A stretch of DNA of 37,642 bases from a virus (UHGV-0029174), one strand, 5' to 3'; counted from the stretch's first letter, positions 5,498-33,993 are shown. Numbers and translations are program-made. Notes: generated by a model from the letters alone, not told the origin.

Positions 5498-5515
5498 TTT
5501 TTCACCTTGTCATTT

Positions 5516-5531
5516 TGTGATCGCTGTCACG
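5516..5531. promoter_or_regulatory. CRP-like palindrome TGTGA-N6-TCACg centred ~63 bp upstream of the predicted start of promoter 5551..5579
   Basis: TGTGATCGCTGTCACG; near-identical TGTGATCGCAATCACG at 34021..34036. Confidence 0.4.
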
Positions 5532-5550: not shown

Positions 5551-5579
5551 TTGATCGCGATTTTTACAATATGTATATT
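5551..5579 (+). promoter_or_regulatory. sigma70-like promoter (TTGATC-N17-TATATT) for plus-strand cassette
   Basis: -35 at 5551..5556, 17-nt spacer, -10 at 5574..5579, upstream of SD AAGGAA and ATG 5596. Confidence 0.5.
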
Positions 5580-5595: not shown

Positions 5596-5829
5596 ATGGT
5601 TAACAAAATGGCGCGGAGGTATGAGGTGGATGATAAGGTGTGGAGGTTGACGGTGTTCCTTAGTGATGGCAGGGAAATGACTGTTGCCCTGTATAAAGAT
5701 GAAGGCGAGGCACTTACTGACGCGCTATTACTCGCTGAAGACGAAAGGGTTTTGGGGTACAGGATTAAACCTGTCAAATGGGAGGTTATAACAAAAAATG
5801 AAAAAATACAGGTTAGACGTGTGGACTGA
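5596..5829 (+). CDS. hypothetical protein (78 aa), first gene of antisense cassette between L and M
   Basis: ATG 5596 with SD AAGGAA; in frame with track ORF 5551..5829. Confidence 0.5.
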   Translation: MVNKMARRYEVDDKVWRLTVFLSDGREMTVALYKDEGEALTDALLLAEDERVLGYRIKPVKWEVITKNEKIQVRRVD

Positions 5830-6148
5830 TAAATGCGAATGGGAAAGCATGGGGCTATTTGACACATTTGAATCAGCGCGTGATGAAGGTTGCGAATTGC
5901 TCCGCTGTTGGTCTAACGCTCGTGATTATTATGTTATTCCTGTACAAGTACCGGATAAGGCGGAAGAGATGAACCCGAAAGACATTAACTTTAACGTCAA
6001 TGTTGAATTCGCTGATTCTATGGATCAGTCTTGCCCTGGTGAAATACACGCAAAAGGTTTCCCGGCAGACAATCCAGAAGCAAAACGCGAATACGAAAAA
6101 GCTGCGAAAGACTTCTGCATAGATAACCTGGGCGCATTCGATAAATAA
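5798..6148 (+). CDS. hypothetical acidic protein (116 aa)
   Basis: Track ORF; overlaps upstream gene end; GGGAGG upstream. Confidence 0.5.
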   Translation: MKKYRLDVWTDKCEWESMGLFDTFESARDEGCELLRCWSNARDYYVIPVQVPDKAEEMNPKDINFNVNVEFADSMDQSCPGEIHAKGFPADNPEAKREYEKAAKDFCIDNLGAFDK

Positions 6149-7140: not shown

Positions 7141-7178
7141 ATCTTTACGCGCTGCTACGCGAAAAATGAGAAATTCAT
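7141..7178 (-). promoter_or_regulatory. conserved ~38-bp element upstream of M (copy 1; second copy 19364..19400 upstream of portal)
   Basis: Plus strand TTTACGCGCTGCTACGCGAAAAATGAGAAATTC vs TTTACGCGTTGCTACGCGAAAAATAGAAAAATTC. Confidence 0.4.
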
Positions 7179-7198
7179 CACAAGAATTATAACCAGTT

Positions 7199-7238
7199 TA
7201 CAAAATGGCTTCACATAAGGCGTGACAAGATGTATATA
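7199..7238 (+). promoter_or_regulatory. promoter for second plus-strand cassette (ACAAAATGGCTTCACA; -35 TTCACA; -10 TATATA)
   Basis: 15-mer ACAAAATGGCTTCAC identical to 10546..10560; TTCACA-N17-TATATA. Confidence 0.45.
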
Positions 7239-7280
7239 GTAAGCAAGAAGAAAAAGCAGTACCGACAAAGGGGGGGCAAT

Positions 7281-7436
7281 ATGGAACGCTATGTGGTTGT
7301 GATGCTGAACAAAGCATTCGAACAGGTGGAAGTTGCGATTGTGAAGGGCTTTGATGATGCATTCAAATACGGTCAATTCATGATGAATGCAAAAGAAGAT
7401 GAATACCGTGATTTCTTCCTGAAAGTGGTCAACTAA
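7281..7436 (+). CDS. hypothetical protein (51 aa; track ORF 7230..7436 trimmed to ATG with SD GGGGGG)
   Basis: Strong SD before ATG 7281; the predicted promoter places the transcript start inside the longer track ORF. Confidence 0.45.
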   Translation: MERYVVVMLNKAFEQVEVAIVKGFDDAFKYGQFMMNAKEDEYRDFFLKVVN

Positions 7437-7454
7437 TGGATTGTGGGGTGTGTT

Positions 7455-7709
7455 ATGAAATTGGTAGCGATTGGTAAAAATCTGAAAGCACAGAAAAACG
7501 CACAGGACCGGATCATCAAAAAGGGCAAGGCTTTATTAAATGCTTTCCTGAGAAAAGAGGCCACCCCCAAAAAATTACGCGATGGCTACGGTTATAAATT
7601 TGATATTAACCCCGATTGGCGGTTATTCAGCGAAGATTTAAAGGCGTGGTTAATTATCGACCATCTGGAATATAACAGGCACTGTGGGGTGAAAGGCGCT
7701 CACAAGTGA
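7455..7709 (+). CDS. hypothetical basic protein (84 aa)
   Basis: ATG 7455 with SD GGGGTG; in frame with track ORF 7443..7709. Confidence 0.45.
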   Translation: MKLVAIGKNLKAQKNAQDRIIKKGKALLNAFLRKEATPKKLRDGYGYKFDINPDWRLFSEDLKAWLIIDHLEYNRHCGVKGAHK

Positions 7710-7740
7710 CACGGATTTGAATGTTGCGGAGGAAAACAAA

Positions 7741-7911
7741 ATGAAAAACCCGGCAAATAAAAGCAACGTAAAACGCATAGCGTGGGTGCTAAAATATATG
7801 GATAGCAAAGGGGATACATATACATGCCCATTTTTCAGGTATACTGACGCGGTATTTGCCAGAAGTGTACACGGAGGGAAAATTGAAAGAGGATATACAA
7901 GATTTGAGTAA
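7741..7911 (+). CDS. hypothetical protein (56 aa)
   Basis: ATG 7741 with SD GAGGAA; track ORF 7717 uses TTG. Confidence 0.45.
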   Translation: MKNPANKSNVKRIAWVLKYMDSKGDTYTCPFFRYTDAVFARSVHGGKIERGYTRFE

Positions 7912-7949
7912 ATTTATTCACGAAATCAATAACATGATGAAGGTTTATA

Positions 7950-8129
7950 ATGATTATTCACGAGACTGAAGAATGTAGAAGGATTGATCTTAGTGTTGAA
8001 GATGATGGAAGATTATGGATCGTTAGCGACTGCGAGATGATTGTAATAGACAAAAAGCAAGCTGACGAACTGATAAGCGCATTACAGCTTTATGCAAACG
8101 GCGAATTTAAGAATGATGAAATTGAATAA
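7950..8129 (+). CDS. hypothetical acidic protein (59 aa, MIIHETEECRRIDLSVEDDG...)
   Basis: ATG 7950 with SD AAGG; ends 4 nt before terminator; below track size cut-off. Confidence 0.4.
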   Translation: MIIHETEECRRIDLSVEDDGRLWIVSDCEMIVIDKKQADELISALQLYANGEFKNDEIE

Positions 8130-8132
8130 AGA

Positions 8133-8162
8133 TAGCCCCGGCATTGTGCCGGGGTTTTGTTT
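8133..8162. terminator. terminator hairpin between convergent plus cassette and tape measure gene
   Basis: 8-bp stem CCCCGGCA/TGCCGGGG, 3-nt loop, then TTTTGTTTATTT on plus strand. Confidence 0.65.
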
Positions 8163-10503
8163 ATTTCCTGCGAGGTTGTAACATCCCTCCGGGCCGTTGC
8201 GATTCCCTTGCCATCATTTTCATCGCGACGCGTTCCATCGTCTGTTCAAGTCTGCGACTGTCTTCGTCGCTAAATCCGTTTGTGGTCTGTACGGTGATGT
8301 TAACAGGCATATTGATGCCGCCACCACTGAAGAGATCGCGACCAGGAATTACCCTACCATTCTCGCCAGGAATCATATACTGACGCCCGTTGCTCGTCTG
8401 GAATAGCTCTGGTATCCCGTGTTCCCCTACGCGATACAGGCTACCACCATTAACAGAACCACCATTATAACGCCCGCCACCAAAGATTGACGTTGCCAGC
8501 GACATGATCGCAGAAAGCGCCGCAGCACCAGCCGCCGCCCAGCTACCACCAGTTGACGCCGCAGTCGCCGCCGCCGCCGGGGCCGCCGCCGCTGCAATCT
8601 GGCCTTGTGCCGCTACCGCACCAGCCGTGGTACTTGCTTGCGTGGCCTTGCTCTGTGTTTCCATCATCAACTGATCTGCTATCCAGTTGGCGGCAATTTC
8701 TGACAGTTTGTTGCCAACGGTGTTAAGTATGCTGCTTCCCAGGTTGGCAAAGACCTCGCTTAACGATTGAGTACCGTTTAGCAGGCCGGTAAGGGCATTA
8801 CCCATGCCACCCTTTAGGCCGCTAACACAAGCACCAATCAGGCTGTTTGTGTCGCTTTGCGCCTGCCATTGTTCCCATTTCAGATCCCGGATCTGTTGTT
8901 CGTGTTCCAATTGCGCTTGTCTCTGTTGCGCCTCTGTAGCGCCCAGGTCCAATAGCATTTGCTTTCTTACTGCCCATTCATTCTGTGCCTGTTTGATTGG
9001 GTCAATTTCGCCCTTAAGCTGGTCCATTGGACTAACTATTTGCGACCATTTATCACGCAATTCATCTACAGGGATTTGCGCTAATTCTTCCTTCAGTTCT
9101 TTGCCGATCCCTTTTTGCGCTGCGCGGTATTCAAGGAGTGTGATTTTACCCTGGGCGAATGCAGCATCAATGGCCTTGCCGTTCTCTAACGCTTTGCGCA
9201 TAGCGGCGGCGTCTTTGTTGTACTGGTCAGAAACGCTTATGCCTTTGTCACCAAGCCGATCAGCTTCAGATTTCTTCTCTTTTTTCTGTTTTTTCGGTTT
9301 GTCTACTGGCTTGTCGAATCCGGTAATCGCTCCGTCATTGGCGGCATTCTGTTCATTTTTCCTTGCTTCCTCTGTAGCCTGGATTGCTGCGGTCAGATCA
9401 TCCTGTAATTGCATGACCTTGCCAACGGTCTTACCGTATTTCTTCTCGTAGTTGCTGTTATATTCGTCGGTTTGCTCTCCTGCGACCTCCTTCATCCATT
9501 TGTAGGCGTCCATTAGTGCCTTGATTGGCGTCACCATTGCGATGATCTTCTCGGCCACCTCGCCAGCCTTGATTCTGACATCTTCAAACATGTCGATGAA
9601 TTCGCCACCAGCCGTCTTCAGGGTGTTAAAGCAGGTTTTAGCGAAATCAGCGCCTTCACCTAAAGCCTTAACACCTTTCGTTACAAGATCGATACCAGCA
9701 ACAACCGTATCGGATACACCGAAAAGATCATCCAATTGTTCAACAAGTCCCATAACCTCGACTTTAAGCTCATTCAGAGCCATGCCGGATGTGCGCGGCA
9801 ACTGCGCAAACTTCTCGTTTGTTTCCTGCGTAGCCGCCTGGATCGCGTTAACCATCCTTTCTGCCGTGATCTTACCGTCCAGCATTTCGGCGCGGAATTG
9901 GCCCATTGATAACCCCATCTGGCGGGCCATTGTCTGTACGATGGTCGGGGTGTTTTCTAACAGGCTATTGAATTCTTCAGCACGCAACACGCCACCGTCG
10001 ATAGACTGACGGAATTGACGCATTGAGTTTGACATCTGCTCCGCTGACGCGCCGCCCAACGCCCCCATTTTCTGAATCGTACCTACCAGGTTAAGCAATT
10101 GCCCTTCAGTGGCGGACGTGTTCTTCAGTGAGATAGCCAGACCTTGCCATAGTTCGCCAGTATCCTTCAGGCTTTGCCCAGTTTCCCTGGATATTGCTTT
10201 CAGCCCGTCGAAAACCCGTCCGGCGGACTCCGCATCGCCCGTAAGCATTTTGATTTTTACGCGAAGCATTTTTGCTTGCTCCGCCATATCCATGAATTGG
10301 CGCACAGCCTCCGCAGCAATTAGCAAATGGATAACCCTGGTCAGTGCCTTGATGGATGTTTTCAGGGTGTTTACCTGGCGGTCAGCCTGTTTTGCGCCGC
10401 GCTCTATACGGTCAAAAGCCTGGTCGGCCTGGCGTTGTGCAACGAGAAGTTGACCAGTTTTCGCGTCAACTTCGTAATAAATTGTACCTACACTGGTTGC
10501 CAT
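8161..10503 (-). CDS. tail tape measure protein (780 aa)
   Basis: Largest ORF in tail module, upstream of M-L-K-I-J; helical Q/A/E-rich composition with Gly/Ala-rich C-terminal segment. Confidence 0.85.
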   Translation of the reverse strand: MATSVGTIYYEVDAKTGQLLVAQRQADQAFDRIERGAKQADRQVNTLKTSIKALTRVIHLLIAAEAVRQFMDMAEQAKMLRVKIKMLTGDAESAGRVFDGLKAISRETGQSLKDTGELWQGLAISLKNTSATEGQLLNLVGTIQKMGALGGASAEQMSNSMRQFRQSIDGGVLRAEEFNSLLENTPTIVQTMARQMGLSMGQFRAEMLDGKITAERMVNAIQAATQETNEKFAQLPRTSGMALNELKVEVMGLVEQLDDLFGVSDTVVAGIDLVTKGVKALGEGADFAKTCFNTLKTAGGEFIDMFEDVRIKAGEVAEKIIAMVTPIKALMDAYKWMKEVAGEQTDEYNSNYEKKYGKTVGKVMQLQDDLTAAIQATEEARKNEQNAANDGAITGFDKPVDKPKKQKKEKKSEADRLGDKGISVSDQYNKDAAAMRKALENGKAIDAAFAQGKITLLEYRAAQKGIGKELKEELAQIPVDELRDKWSQIVSPMDQLKGEIDPIKQAQNEWAVRKQMLLDLGATEAQQRQAQLEHEQQIRDLKWEQWQAQSDTNSLIGACVSGLKGGMGNALTGLLNGTQSLSEVFANLGSSILNTVGNKLSEIAANWIADQLMMETQSKATQASTTAGAVAAQGQIAAAAAPAAAATAASTGGSWAAAGAAALSAIMSLATSIFGGGRYNGGSVNGGSLYRVGEHGIPELFQTSNGRQYMIPGENGRVIPGRDLFSGGGINMPVNITVQTTNGFSDEDSRRLEQTMERVAMKMMARESQRPGGMLQPRRK

Positions 10504-10545
10504 GATTTAACCTCATGAAAATTGTGATCTAGATCTCTATTCTAT

Positions 10546-10584
10546 ACAAAATGGCTTCACTTCAACGAATACATTTTGTATAAA
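10546..10584 (+). promoter_or_regulatory. promoter (TTCACT-N17-TATAAA) embedded in inverted repeat TACAAAATG-N18-CATTTTGTA
   Basis: 15-mer identical to 7199..7213; 9-bp inverted repeat arms span -35 to -10. Confidence 0.5.
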
Positions 10585-10661
10585 GAAGACAAAGGAAAGG
10601 GATAGAGTAAAGGGGTTTGAAAGGACCGGATAAACCGGAGGAAGCAAAAGAGGATAAGAAA

Positions 10662-10751
10662 ATGAAAAACGTAAACTACCGTCCCAACGAACATGAGCGC
10701 TATGCAGACTTTATCGAAGAAATGTTAAAATCACTTAAAAACAAAAACTAA
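10662..10751 (+). CDS. small ORF (29 aa, MKNVNYRPNEHERYADFIEEMLKSLKNKN)
   Basis: ATG 10662 with SD AAGAGGA at the end of a GA-rich leader; below track size cut-off. Confidence 0.3.
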   Translation: MKNVNYRPNEHERYADFIEEMLKSLKNKN

Positions 10752-10764
10752 ACGGGGGTGGGTT

Positions 10765-11262
10765 ATGAAGCGGTTAGTAAAAGTTGCGGTAGCTGCGGTC
10801 ATGGCGGTATTCGCGGTCAATGCAAATGCAAATAATGAAGTTAGCAAGATGTGTGATGTGCTGTATCCAGCCTACGAACAAGCATATACAATGGCAAATG
10901 CAAACTTCTTTTCAATTGGCAGACACGGCATTAACTGGGAATATTTCATCTTAAATGAAGATAGCAGGACCAAAAAAGGTGACGCTGAAATGATAAAAGC
11001 GCACGGTGAAAGTTTCGCTTTCGTGATGGCTGCTGCTGAAAATAAACAAAATGACAATGAATTTAAAAACTTTGTCGCTGGACTTGCCATCATGGCTGCT
11101 GAACGGGCGGTAAAAGATCACGACAACAACGCTTATGACGCTGCCGACGGGATGGCATTAGATAGGGTAAGAATTGACTTCAAAAACATGTGCGTCAAAG
11201 AAGGCGCTAACATGTATAAAAAAGTAATAGATAAACACCACGAATATTATATAGGTTATTAA
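10765..11262 (+). CDS. secreted/periplasmic protein with signal peptide (165 aa), antisense within tail module
   Basis: SD GGGGGTGGG; N-terminal MKRLVKVAVAAVMAVFAVNANA signal-peptide-like; own promoter and terminator. Confidence 0.6.
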   Translation: MKRLVKVAVAAVMAVFAVNANANNEVSKMCDVLYPAYEQAYTMANANFFSIGRHGINWEYFILNEDSRTKKGDAEMIKAHGESFAFVMAAAENKQNDNEFKNFVAGLAIMAAERAVKDHDNNAYDAADGMALDRVRIDFKNMCVKEGANMYKKVIDKHHEYYIGY

Positions 11263-11292
11263 AAAAGGCCCGGCTAATCCCGGGCTTTTTCT
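11263..11292. terminator. bidirectional rho-independent terminator (GCCCGG-ctaat-CCGGGC flanked by A6 and T5)
   Basis: A-run/stem-loop/T-run readable on both strands between convergent genes. Confidence 0.7.
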
Positions 11293-11963
11293 TGCTCGCT
11301 ATTTTCCATTCTTTTTAGTATCTCCATAGCCTCCCTCATTCCATCGTCATAAGCCTTTTTATCCAGTAATACATCTGGTCGTTTTTGTTTGTTTCTTGCT
11401 TCTGGCGGCGTTTTAGCACGCACAGCGGCCCTATATCCGGTCATTGTCATGCCCCATGCTTCAGATTCAGACAATCCCAGGTGAGCAACGGCAGAATAAA
11501 CATACTCAAGGATGTCGAATGTCTGCTTATAGTCGCCTTCCTGCTCCTCGCCAGCGTCTTCATCTGGTCCGTCACCAATTAAGCCGTGATACATGCAGTG
11601 TTGCGCCAGCGTGATAACATCATCAACTGGCATTATTCCCGGTTTTAATCTCAATTTACCCGAAGGAGTGAACCAGCATTCGCCTAATAACGGGCCTGTT
11701 TCGTCGTCTGAGCAACATTTCAGTATGTGGATGGATGTTTGCACTATCTCACCATAACACCGCGCCATAATGCGATTGCGGAGGTCTGGATCTGTAGGTA
11801 ATCGTGAAGGGTATTTGCTGCCGTGGATAAGTGCGAAATATTCGACAAGCTCACTATCATTGCCGATTTTAGCCATCGCAGCAAAGCAAGGATTAAACTC
11901 ATAGCGCTTACCGTTCACCACAGCCGCAAATTGTCCTGTACGAACATGGATCATAGTATTCAC
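11274..11963 (-). CDS. tail protein, possibly tail assembly chaperone (229 aa; acidic internal segment)
   Basis: Position between major tail candidate and tape measure; no homology recognised. Confidence 0.35.
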   Translation of the reverse strand: MNTMIHVRTGQFAAVVNGKRYEFNPCFAAMAKIGNDSELVEYFALIHGSKYPSRLPTDPDLRNRIMARCYGEIVQTSIHILKCCSDDETGPLLGECWFTPSGKLRLKPGIMPVDDVITLAQHCMYHGLIGDGPDEDAGEEQEGDYKQTFDILEYVYSAVAHLGLSESEAWGMTMTGYRAAVRAKTPPEARNKQKRPDVLLDKKAYDDGMREAMEILKRMENSEQEKARD

Positions 11964-13863: not shown

Positions 13864-14250
13864 TTACATCCTCCCACTCTTACCTATCCACAGCCCGGCG
13901 TGCGCGGTGTTTTCTGGATCCGGTGGAATCAGTTCGGCTGTACAATGGTTCTTATCAAGGGAGTAAAGCAACGAATAGGCCGCTTTCCATTTTTTATTAA
14001 AATCGACATAGCGATATGACTGGCTTGCGCCGTTCGTACCAGTATGCGAGGAAACGTATTTGTTAGCCTGGGTGAGTCCTAACAGGCCGATCAGATAAAG
14101 TTGGATCAATGTTGCAGTGGAGGCCGGATAGTTGGCATCAAGGCATTCATTAACGCTGTTTGCCTGCTCCACCAGCAAGGATAAGATAATGTCTGGCAGG
14201 TCAATACCCTGGCTTTCAAGATATTCCCGCGCCTGTTCTGTAGTGACCAT
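13864..14250 (-). CDS. putative head-tail connector protein (128 aa; start trimmed to ATG 14250)
   Basis: SD GGAG before ATG 14250; the longer track ORF N-terminus is encoded by the terminator T-run. Confidence 0.4.
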   Translation of the reverse strand: MVTTEQAREYLESQGIDLPDIILSLLVEQANSVNECLDANYPASTATLIQLYLIGLLGLTQANKYVSSHTGTNGASQSYRYVDFNKKWKAAYSLLYSLDKNHCTAELIPPDPENTAHAGLWIGKSGRM

Positions 14251-14268
14251 TTTGTTTACTCCACATAC

Positions 14269-15387: not shown

Positions 15388-15798
15388 TTATGCAACGCGG
15401 ACACGTACAAAATCAGCCGCTTCAAGGGTTACAGTTTCCTGGCAGAAAGCGAAAACCGGATCGGCAGATTCACCAGTTGCTGCGACCTTAAAGCCATCAG
15501 CACCAATGGTGATACCAGCGTCTTTGGTGTAAGTGCCAGTCGGAAGCAGGATTGCGAATTCGCGCCCTTCTTCTGCGTAGTCAGCGACCACGGAATGACC
15601 AACCGGGATCGCATCTTCAATGCCTAATCCTTCATGGTATGCCGGATTAACAACATAAATACGGCCTACGGTATCAGCGGCAGCAACGAATTTACCGGCC
15701 GTCATTTTAACCGGGGTGCCTGGTTTAAGCTCTGCGGCAGATACTGCGGTTTCGGTAATAGATTTACCGTCAATATTCACACGACGAAAACGGGCCAT
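15388..15798 (-). CDS. head protein (136 aa), possibly decoration or capsid-associated
   Basis: Position between scaffold and capsid genes. Confidence 0.35.
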   Translation of the reverse strand: MARFRRVNIDGKSITETAVSAAELKPGTPVKMTAGKFVAAADTVGRIYVVNPAYHEGLGIEDAIPVGHSVVADYAEEGREFAILLPTGTYTKDAGITIGADGFKVAATGESADPVFAFCQETVTLEAADFVRVRVA

Positions 15799-26744: not shown

Positions 26745-26785
26745 ATATATAACAAAATGGCACTGCCTAAACAATGCCATTTCGT
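26745..26785 (-). promoter_or_regulatory. internal promoter-like element with palindrome ACAAAATGGCA-N12-TGCCATTTcGT and extended -10 (TGT-TATATA)
   Basis: 11-bp inverted arms with 1 mismatch; minus strand CCATTTTGTTATATA upstream of ATG 26727. Confidence 0.4.
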
Positions 26786-26827
26786 ATACATTGTGATACA
26801 AGTCACATTTTGCGCAATTAACTTTTA

Positions 26828-30644: not shown

Positions 30645-30724
30645 AATGCTCTCTCCTTTTCAGGTGATTTCTACGCATTTCAGCGCTGCCGGATTTTTAA
30701 AGAGCATTTCTTTTGCTTGAAGTA

Positions 30725-30799
30725 TACAAAATGGATACGTGCAAACAAGACGAAAAGCGCCATTATGTGACATCAATCACACAATGACGCCATTTTGTA
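30725..30799. promoter_or_regulatory. inverted repeat TACAAAATGG ... CCATTTTGTA (10-bp arms, 55-bp spacer) with -10-like TATACT on minus strand
   Basis: Same ACAAAATGG / CCATTTTGT motif as at 7199, 10546 and 26752; upstream of ninF-like gene. Confidence 0.35.
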
Positions 30800-30899
30800 A
30801 ATTTCAGTCCGGTAAAGCGCGGTTGAGCGTAGTACGATTGATGGCCCGGTCGTTAGCCAGGAATACAGCACGGGCGAAGCCGCGCGGCGGTGGCTTGTT

Positions 30900-33940: not shown

Positions 33941-33993
33941 CTTGTTTTCCTCCGCGCCGTAAACCTTTTGATTTCAGTTCACAAAACGGACAT

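Follow-up and report, generated by a model that had tools for sequence, protein, structure and literature searches.

The window studied here, a stretch of 37,642 nucleotides of viral DNA (UHGV-0029174), raises the question of why the same short words, ACAAAATGG and CCATTTTGT, recur between its genes and why one 15-mer, ACAAAATGGCTTCAC, stands unchanged at 7200-7214 and 10546-10560. An earlier reading of the sequence alone (the sequence-only reading) had noticed the two copies, placing the first one base too early at 7199, and had attributed the word family to a shared regulator or promoter class. By megablast, the window was assigned to the mEp021 (mEpimmI) group, E. coli phages that are temperate, Nus-dependent and non-lambdoid; nucleotide identity was about 86-90%, and no complete E. 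coli genome was closer to it than these matches; judged by its sequence, it is a new, divergent member of the group. A 2025 description introduced the mEpimmI phages as a new group at family level, common in the human gut (PMC11893012). The window runs antiparallel to the mEp021 record, spans approximately 13-49 kb of it, and contains the tail module, the head module, the lysis genes, Q and most of the early-right operon, with the immunity region lying outside. Our answer, to which we give a probability of roughly 0.7, is that the words would be parts of 13-bp operators of a CI-like immunity repressor, dispersed over at least six predicted promoters and repressing many separate cassettes.

Enrichment, dyad form and promoter geometry of the motif

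The word ACAAAATGG was found in eight exact copies on the two strands of the window, compared with 0.75 expected from dinucleotide-preserving shuffles (n=100), none of which reached eight. Six of the eight copies fall in non-coding DNA, which makes up about 9% of the window. The complete mEp021 genome contains 11 copies against approximately 0.8 expected. A Markov-corrected k-mer survey placed (T)ATACAAAATGG(C) among the most over-represented words in the window and mEp021, and ACAAAATGG itself was among the most over-represented 9-mers in both, so that the recurrence from which a shared regulator had been argued is indeed above expectation in either sequence. The exact copies are as follows.

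5603, plus strand: copy within a 5' leader
7200, plus strand: copy within the first 15-mer
10546, plus strand: copy within the second 15-mer
26752, plus strand: exact copy
30726, plus strand: exact copy
14247-14255, minus strand: copy whose ATG is the start codon of the gp57 homologue (mEp021 annotation), downstream of a terminator; probably not an operator
18148-18156, minus strand: copy inside the portal gene, coding-constrained or due to chance
30790, minus strand: exact copy

Each of the two words forms the core of an imperfect dyad of 13 bp, WTACA-N3-TGKWW, whose underlying consensus WTACA-N3-TGTAW has the dyad symmetry of lambda-type CI/Cro operators. The dyad is perfect at 10569 (ATACATTTTGTAT), 5564 and 19166, and most other copies combine one perfect half with one NNCCA half. 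Inverted partners of the word, reported before for the regions at 26752 and 30725, were present at 26777-26785 (ACGAAATGG), 30760-30768 (ACATAATGG), 30790-30798 and 10571-10579 (ACAAAATGT). Two further copies, claimed at 5512 and 34005, are related to the word but carry one mismatch each (ACAAAATGA on the minus strand at 5510-5518 and ACAAAATGT at 34005-34013). The sequence-only reading had missed the dyad itself, a companion motif TGTGA-N6-TCACA, a third cassette promoter at 5551 and the two coding copies.

When 13 candidate promoters were aligned on their -10 hexamers and 13-mers were scored around each, a common layout was obtained. One site, O1, was centred at -16 and overlapped the -10 hexamer in all modules, for example ATACATTTTGTAT followed by AAA at 10569 and TTACAATATGTAT followed by ATT at 5564. 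A second site, O2, was centred at -40 to -42 and abutted the -35 hexamer in five modules, as in ATACAAAATGGC followed by TTCACT at 10544 and likewise at 7198, 26775-26787 and 34003-34015. At P30745 and the mEp021 leftward promoter the second site stood one helical turn further out, at -50/-51. The distance between the O1 and O2 centres was 24-25 bp (34-35 bp at two promoters), so that at five promoters two sites in tandem cover the -10 and -35 at a distance of about 2-2.5 helical turns, as in lambda-type operators. The fixed positions of -16 and about -41 relative to the starts of predicted sigma-70-type promoters, together with the agreement with switch-region operators of CI-like repressors described below, bear out the proposal of a shared regulator.

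The common layout also accounts for the 15-mer: since O2 abuts the -35 hexamer, ACAAAATGGCTTCAC is O2 plus the first five bases of that hexamer. The TTCAC(A/T) that had been described as following the 15-mer is a -35-like hexamer (7210-7215 and 10556-10561) but overlaps it. The -10 hexamers TATATA (7233-7238) and TATAAA (10579-10584) lie exactly 17 bp from the -35 as had been stated, and geometry and conservation support the -35/-10 assignment at both sites. The -35 hexamers TTCACA, TTCACT, TTGTTT and TTGTGA are weak, and because of this a simple consensus promoter scan listed only P5551 among the six promoters. The predicted modules of the window are given below; bit scores refer to a position weight matrix (PWM) trained on heterologous phages only, which is introduced in the next section.

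5551-5556 and 5574-5579, plus strand: P5551, -35 hexamer TTGATC and -10 hexamer TATATT, from the consensus scan
5564-5576, plus strand: P5551 O1, TTACAATATGTAT, centre -16, overlapping the -10; 16.0 bits; kept in 44/44 relatives
7198-7210, plus strand: P7200 O2, TTACAAAATGGCT, centre -41; kept in 45/45 relatives
7223-7235, plus strand: P7200 O1, TGACAAGATGTAT, a weaker dyad, centre -16, overlapping the -10
7210-7238, plus strand: P7200 core promoter TTCACA-N17-TATATA, predicted from geometry
10544-10556, plus strand: P10546 O2, ATACAAAATGGCT, centre -41, abutting the -35; kept in 41/41 relatives
10569-10581, plus strand: P10546 O1, ATACATTTTGTAT, perfect dyad, centre -16, overlapping the -10; kept in 41/41 relatives
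10556-10584, plus strand: P10546 core promoter TTCACT-N17-TATAAA, predicted
26750-26762, minus strand: P26785 O1, TGCCATTTTGTTA, adjoining the -10 TATATA (26746-26751); kept in 36 relatives
26775-26787, minus strand: P26785 O2, ATACGAAATGGCA, centre -42; -35 TTGTTT at 26769-26774
30724-30736, minus strand: P30745 O1, ATCCATTTTGTAT, centre -16, overlapping the -10 TATACT (30721-30726); 13.1 bits; kept in 45/45 relatives
30743-30748, minus strand: P30745 -35 hexamer TTGTTT
30758-30770, minus strand: operator-like TCACATAATGGCG, centre -50 of P30745, inside a hairpin; unchanged in 44/45 relatives
30788-30800, minus strand: operator-like TTACAAAATGGCG, centre -80 of P30745
33979-33991, minus strand: P34040 O1, GTCCGTTTTGTGA, centre -16, overlapping the -10 TGAACT (33976-33981); -35 TTGTGA at 33998-34003
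34003-34015, minus strand: P34040 O2, ATACATTTTGTGT, centre -40; 14.5 bits

A first conservation analysis, in which loci were fetched by the 15-mer itself, was rejected as circular and was redone with alignments fetched through neighbouring proteins (the gp69 homologue and Q), a selection independent of the motif. Operator columns were 0.967 conserved compared with 0.896 for other non-coding columns (Mann-Whitney p = 7e-11), and 71% of operator columns were invariant against 44% of the others. Because of the dependence between columns and the overlap of O1 with the -10, the result speaks for function of some kind and not for operator function in particular. The sites were retained in 36-45 relatives, and ATACAAAATG was invariant at P10546 O2 in 24 distinct orthologous sequences. 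Relatives differed chiefly in the N3 centre, at the outermost base and in the weaker half-site, and the ATACA and NNCCA halves interchange between relatives, for instance at O1 of P10546.

Switch regions of related repressors and the mEp021 immunity region

The repressor of the group, Rep (gp15 in mEp021), contains HTH_3 and Peptidase_S24 domains, is at least 93% identical in 44 relatives and aligns to lambda CI (PDB 3bdn) with E = 4e-19. Rep has been reported to confer immunity, in a description that does not define its operators or promoters (PMC11893012), and no operator description was found in the literature for this CI-like repressor clade. Related repressors were found in four other phages, namely Erwinia Midgardsormr38, Stx2 phage 1717, Vibrio H8 and an IMG/VR contig. 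Over their whole length these repressors share 36-46% identity with Rep, and 41-60% within the DNA-binding domain; five residues are invariant, M1, K4 and W5 in the N-terminal arm and H36 and W37 in the recognition helix. All four phages have the classical divergent cI-cro arrangement, and each 110-bp switch region contains three 13-bp dyads of the window's family (ATACATTTCGTAT, ATACAAAATGTGT and ATACAGATTGTAT in Erwinia; TTACATAATGGCG is an example from Vibrio H8).

A PWM built from these heterologous sites only gave five window sites at 13 bits or more compared with 0.32 expected, four of them non-coding and at promoters (5564, 10569, 30724 and 34003). The top match in the window was ATACATTTTGTAT at 10569-10581 with 16.9 bits. 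In mEp021 the same matrix found eight sites against 0.62 expected. Since the foreign sites had been chosen by eye, the reverse test was run with a window-only PWM. The top three matches in the 2.4-kb Erwinia locus were all in the switch region, which is 4.5% of that locus. In Vibrio H8 the first and third matches were in the switch, and another pair of matches, 25 bp apart, lay beside the repressor gene.

Sites of the same family were present in the immunity region of mEp021. On the PR side, GTATACAAAATGGA precedes TTGACT-N17-TATATT between the repressor terminator and gp16/gp17, and this is probably the early rightward promoter. In the 27 distinct immunity regions that were fetched via the repressor protein, GTATACAAAATGG+TTGACT was invariant, while the spacer swaps between unrelated haplotypes. 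At the leftward promoter upstream of nutL, TTTACA(A/G)AATGG (TTTACAAAATGG) overlaps the -10 hexamer TAAACT, and the repressor gene itself is preceded by a TTGCAT hexamer with a further copy immediately upstream. These sites were invariant or nearly so across the 27 regions. Sites beside the repressor gene and over early promoters were thus found in mEp021, in 27 distinct relatives and in the four heterologous cI-cro switches. Unlike the four heterologous relatives, mEp021 has no Cro homologue annotated beside its repressor gene. The predicted layout for mEpimmI phages is PL and the repressor promoter back to back with PR downstream of the repressor gene.

Some alternative forms of the element were tried and rejected. 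A 434-type ACAA-N6-TTGT operator and larger palindromes of 17 bp (GTAT...ATAC) and 40 bp (TATACA-N28-TGTATA) did not hold, as conservation between sites stops 3' of GG and haplotypes alternate in the PR spacer.

Three observations concern neighbouring mEp021 genes. The GenBank repressor coding sequence (MH706966) starts at 11218, and an in-frame ATG at 11167 would give MKTKWYDLAK..., an N-terminus conserved in the four heterologous repressors; the true start probably lies 51 nt before the annotated one. The ACAAAATGG copy at 11173 is repressor coding sequence when counted from this ATG. The gene gp14 (10615-10860), annotated as a MarR-like helix-turn-helix protein, resembles O-type replication initiators in their N-terminal winged helix (PHROG 4617, E = 2e-9); it was dropped as a Cro-like or Crp-like binder, Pfam matches being below threshold and PHROGs pointing to replication-initiator N-termini.

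Proposed repression by the immunity repressor and rival explanations

At lambda PR, polymerase is excluded by two CI dimers that bind cooperatively to OR1 and OR2, whose centres at about -17 and about -41 are 24 bp apart. The sites described here resemble OR1/OR2 (and OL1/OL2) in being short dyads for a repressor with helix-turn-helix and S24 domains, one over the -10 and spacer and the second at the -35, with centres at -16 and -40 to -42 and a spacing of 24-25 bp. From the same positions and spacing we infer repression by pairs of Rep dimers, with Rep as the binder and the predicted promoters as active ones. Rep dimers would bind the 13-bp dyads, O1 at -16 over the -10 and O2 usually 24-25 bp upstream. 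In a lysogen, two dimers per pair, probably cooperative, would occlude RNA polymerase, and the early operons, the internal promoter feeding nutR2 and the Q gene, and three antisense accessory-gene ("moron") cassettes in the tail module would be silenced. Upon infection or repressor loss, all operator-bearing promoters would fire together.

The arrangement differs from lambda in several respects. The core is 13 bp here and 17 bp in lambda, the sites are spread over 29 kb of the window, at no fewer than six promoters, mEp021 has them in about a dozen places, and mEpimmI phages lack a divergent cro beside the repressor and have the rightward early promoter downstream of the repressor gene. Most features of a lambda-type CI operator were found, with a cognate repressor presumed from relatives and its binding predicted; the exception was confinement to two clusters (OL/OR), as the six promoters are spread between 5.5 and 34 kb.

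Dispersed operators have precedents. In P1 (C1), Streptomyces phiC31 (conserved inverted repeats) and the telomere phages N15/phiKO2 (CB), one immunity repressor acts on operators scattered along the genome in many operons, and one immunity repressor would likewise act on the copies dispersed here. For the telomere phages, the literature search listed PMC4997575 and PMC4488713. However, C1 of P1, which has no relation to CI, binds as a monomer to asymmetric sites of 17 bp, whereas a CI-like repressor and dyads in lambda-like tandem pairs are proposed here. The stoperators of cluster A mycobacteriophages (L5 gp71, L1) are also numerous 13-bp repressor sites, several of them in short gaps within operons, but they are asymmetric and oriented with transcription, and their repressor lacks an S24 domain. 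In contrast, the sites in the window are dyads, lie mostly at promoters, and occur in both orientations at or within the same transcription units. Multiple asymmetric operators have been described for the L1 repressor (PMC1934351). Because dispersed operators are known from P1, phiC31, N15-type phages and stoperators, the principle is not new.

Several points weigh against repression by Rep. Most copies are asymmetric, their right half reading TGG and not TGT, and such a site is suboptimal for a symmetric dimer. Five of the six promoters have weak -35 hexamers and escaped the consensus scan, and all six, with the binding at their operators, are predictions. The cognate repressor of the window's phage is assumed from its relatives, the immunity region being outside the window. 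The heterologous training sites were selected after the motif was known, and only the reciprocal test is free of that bias. A site at -41 abutting the -35 is also the activating geometry of lambda CI at PRM, and Rep might activate rather than repress at the weak-O1 promoters P7200 and P26785. Toxin-antitoxin and superinfection-exclusion genes are often expressed in lysogens, which is a misfit with simple repression.

Ranked next is a dual-function version in which the immunity repressor is still the binder but activates at some promoters, its -41 dimer contacting sigma region 4, so that the cassettes would be on in lysogens. We consider this unlikely. The abutment of O2 on the weak hexamers TTCACA, TTCACT and TTGTTT, the low score of O1 at P7200 (9.0 bits, reading CAACAAGATGTAT in most relatives) and the copy just upstream of the TTGCAT hexamer before the repressor gene would all suit activation, and P7200 drives a ParE-like toxin module, a kind of gene that prophages often express. 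However, the second site over the -10 is the strongest dyad at P10546, P5551 and P30745 (13-17 bits) and predicts occlusion, and the probable early rightward promoter of mEp021 has a -41 site but a near-consensus core that needs no activator.

Binding by another regulator, either a Cro-like or other early phage protein or a host protein, with the motif marking a promoter class, appears less probable still. The regulatory cast of mEp021 is incomplete, with no annotated Cro homologue beside the repressor and a gp14 that resembles a replication-initiator winged helix, and a symmetric dimer does not explain the asymmetry of most copies and the constant GG. On the other hand, cI-cro switch regions are the classical location of CI/Cro operators, and the dyad family fills those of four phages that share only the repressor clade; a Cro sharing the operators would not alter the identification of the sites. 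For a host protein, we know of no E. coli factor whose consensus is recognisable in ACAAAATGG, and in an informal comparison by eye, none of the sigma-54, sigma-32, DnaA, IHF, Fis, TyrR and MarA-type consensus sequences fitted.

The least probable explanation, a polymerase-contact element or a duplicated promoter cassette, is suggested by ACAAAATGG at -45 to -37, where A-rich proximal UP subsites lie (-46 to -38), by CCATTTTG in front of TATA and by the exact 15-mer common to promoters 7200 and 10546, but conserved T, C and GG positions in a dyad are not UP-element features, the dyad also occurs at -16, +21, -50/-51 and -80, in promoterless mEp021 gaps (6064, 7722 and 12608) and in foreign switches, and the modules cannot be aligned with each other outside the motif and hexamers, which argues against simple duplication. 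The sequence-only reading had likened CCATTTTG before TATA to an extended -10. This was rejected since the TG of CCATTTTG followed by TATAxx abuts the hexamer at -14/-13, one base out of register with the -15/-14 of an extended -10; by position it is the predicted promoter-proximal operator overlapping the -10.

Companion motif, accessory cassettes and the predicted nutR2 promoter

With up to one mismatch, TGTGA-N6-TCACA was found five times in the window compared with 1.03 expected, every copy at an operator-bearing promoter. Two copies were perfect and three had one mismatch; a sixth, with two mismatches, was found at P10546. Their centres were at -59.5 to -62.5, or at -70.5 for P7200, with an uncertainty of about 1-2 bp as the transcription starts are predicted, and both these positions (near -61.5 or -71.5) and the consensus are those of class I CRP sites. 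The arms were conserved and the centres variable among relatives. Besides a perfect core at 30766-30781, listed further below with its hairpin, the copies are as follows.

5516-5531, plus strand: CRP-like TGTGATCGCTGTCACG, centre -62.5 of P5551; arms invariant, centre variable
7167-7182, plus strand: CRP-like TGAGAAATTCATCACA, centre -70.5 of P7200
10523-10538, plus strand: CRP-like palindrome TGTGATCTAGATCTCT, centre -60.5 of P10546; arms conserved, centre variable in relatives
26792-26807, no strand assigned: perfect CRP-consensus core TGTGATACAAGTCACA, centre -60.5 of P26785
34021-34036, no strand assigned: CRP-like TGTGATCGCAATCACG, centre -59.5 of P34040

On the simplest reading, these are CRP consensus cores at class I positions, from which cyclic AMP-CRP would activate promoters with weak -35 hexamers; a phage-encoded protein that binds the motif instead of CRP is a candidate alternative. 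The copies resemble class I CRP promoters of the lac P1 type in having the core near -60/-70 upstream of weak -35 hexamers. They differ in that one lies inside a terminator-like hairpin and two right arms, at P30745 and mEp021 PL, double as operator half-sites, through which repressor and activator could compete.

The three plus-strand promoters P5551, P7200 and P10546 are opposed to the tail genes and drive small cassettes ending in terminator-like hairpins. The P5551 cassette has four small open reading frames (ORFs), one of them a KilAC/ANT fragment. A further site stands in its leader.

5601-5613, plus strand: operator-like TAACAAAATGGCG, lying about 21 nt past the predicted start of P5551 and immediately ahead of the ribosome-binding site of the cassette's first gene

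This site was unchanged in 35/37 relatives. Similar 13-mers occur in very short intergenic gaps within mEp021 operons, at 6064, 7722 and 12608; like 5601-5613, they adjoin ribosome-binding sites, leave no room for a promoter and recall roadblock (stoperator-like) or looping sites.

In the P7200 cassette, a small ORF (7282-7436) is followed by an ORF (7443-7709) with a ParE-like toxin match (PF24732, E = 4e-11) and two further small ORFs, up to a terminator-like hairpin at 8134-8156. The first two ORFs (7282-7709), antisense within the tail module, are probably a toxin-antitoxin pair. The P10546 cassette comprises ORFs of 29 aa (10663-10752) and 165 aa (10765-11262), antisense to the tail genes, and ends at a terminator-like hairpin (11281-11298). 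None of the cassette proteins received a name from NCBIfam. Between the tail genes and this cassette, 11274-11963 on the minus strand encodes a DUF6246 protein (E = 1.5e-54), and RefSeq annotations of related prophages place an 'anti-CBASS protein Acb1 family protein' somewhere around this region.

The three minus-strand promoters P34040, P26785 and P30745 lie within the early-right/Q region. P34040 is located between the gp25 and gp26 homologues and P26785 downstream of Q. P30745 stands between a 16-bp hairpin and the boxA-like GCTCTTTAAAAA of nutR2, whose position has been described for mEpimmI phages (PMC11893012).

30756-30791, minus strand: hairpin of 16 bp with a T-run after it, homologous to mEp021's predicted terminator TERM_4 (t4), containing the perfect CRP-like core 30766-30781
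30694-30705, minus strand: boxA-like GCTCTTTAAAAA of nutR2, starting about 10 nt after the predicted P30745 start

Being upstream of nutR2, ninG, rusA and Q, P30745 would need to be silent in lysogens, as it would otherwise express Q there. The third nut site of the mEpimmI family may thus have its own repressor-controlled promoter, which would offer a simple reason for this unusual feature.

A wider proposal, which we regard as doubtful, is that this lambda-CI-type repressor runs a genome-wide early regulon in place of a switch with two operator clusters, in which every non-late promoter carries an O1/O2 pair and a CRP site near -61, including the three antisense cassettes and the internal promoter that would reload the N-like antiterminator at nutR2. 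If true, immunity and the host catabolite state would jointly gate all early and accessory genes, and the family's third nut site would exist because of its own repressor-controlled promoter. For repression by Rep as such, the operator sequence and about a dozen controlled sites per genome are predicted for mEpimmI phages, and a 13-bp signature is proposed for the CI-like repressor clade in Escherichia, Erwinia, Vibrio and Stx phages. The findings also suggest that the immunity circuit extends to accessory cassettes of the late region, a toxin-antitoxin module among them.

Inside the portal gene, a perfect operator dyad, ATACAATTTGTAT, was found at 19166-19178 with 16.4 bits. Relatives keep a dyad at this position (ATACAGTTTGTAT/C, and GTACAAACTGTAT in mEp021), which could be a looping or roadblock site or a coding coincidence.

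The other over-represented words, ATGGCCCG, CCGCCGCCG and CAGAAAGCGCC, were set aside as gene starts or coding repeats. The window contained 11 copies of ATGGCCCG compared with about one expected, at 15791 and 21901 on the minus strand and nine other sites; several are Met-Ala-Arg gene starts, and an identical translation-start cassette, TAAGAGGTGAATTATGGCCCG, is common to two genes.

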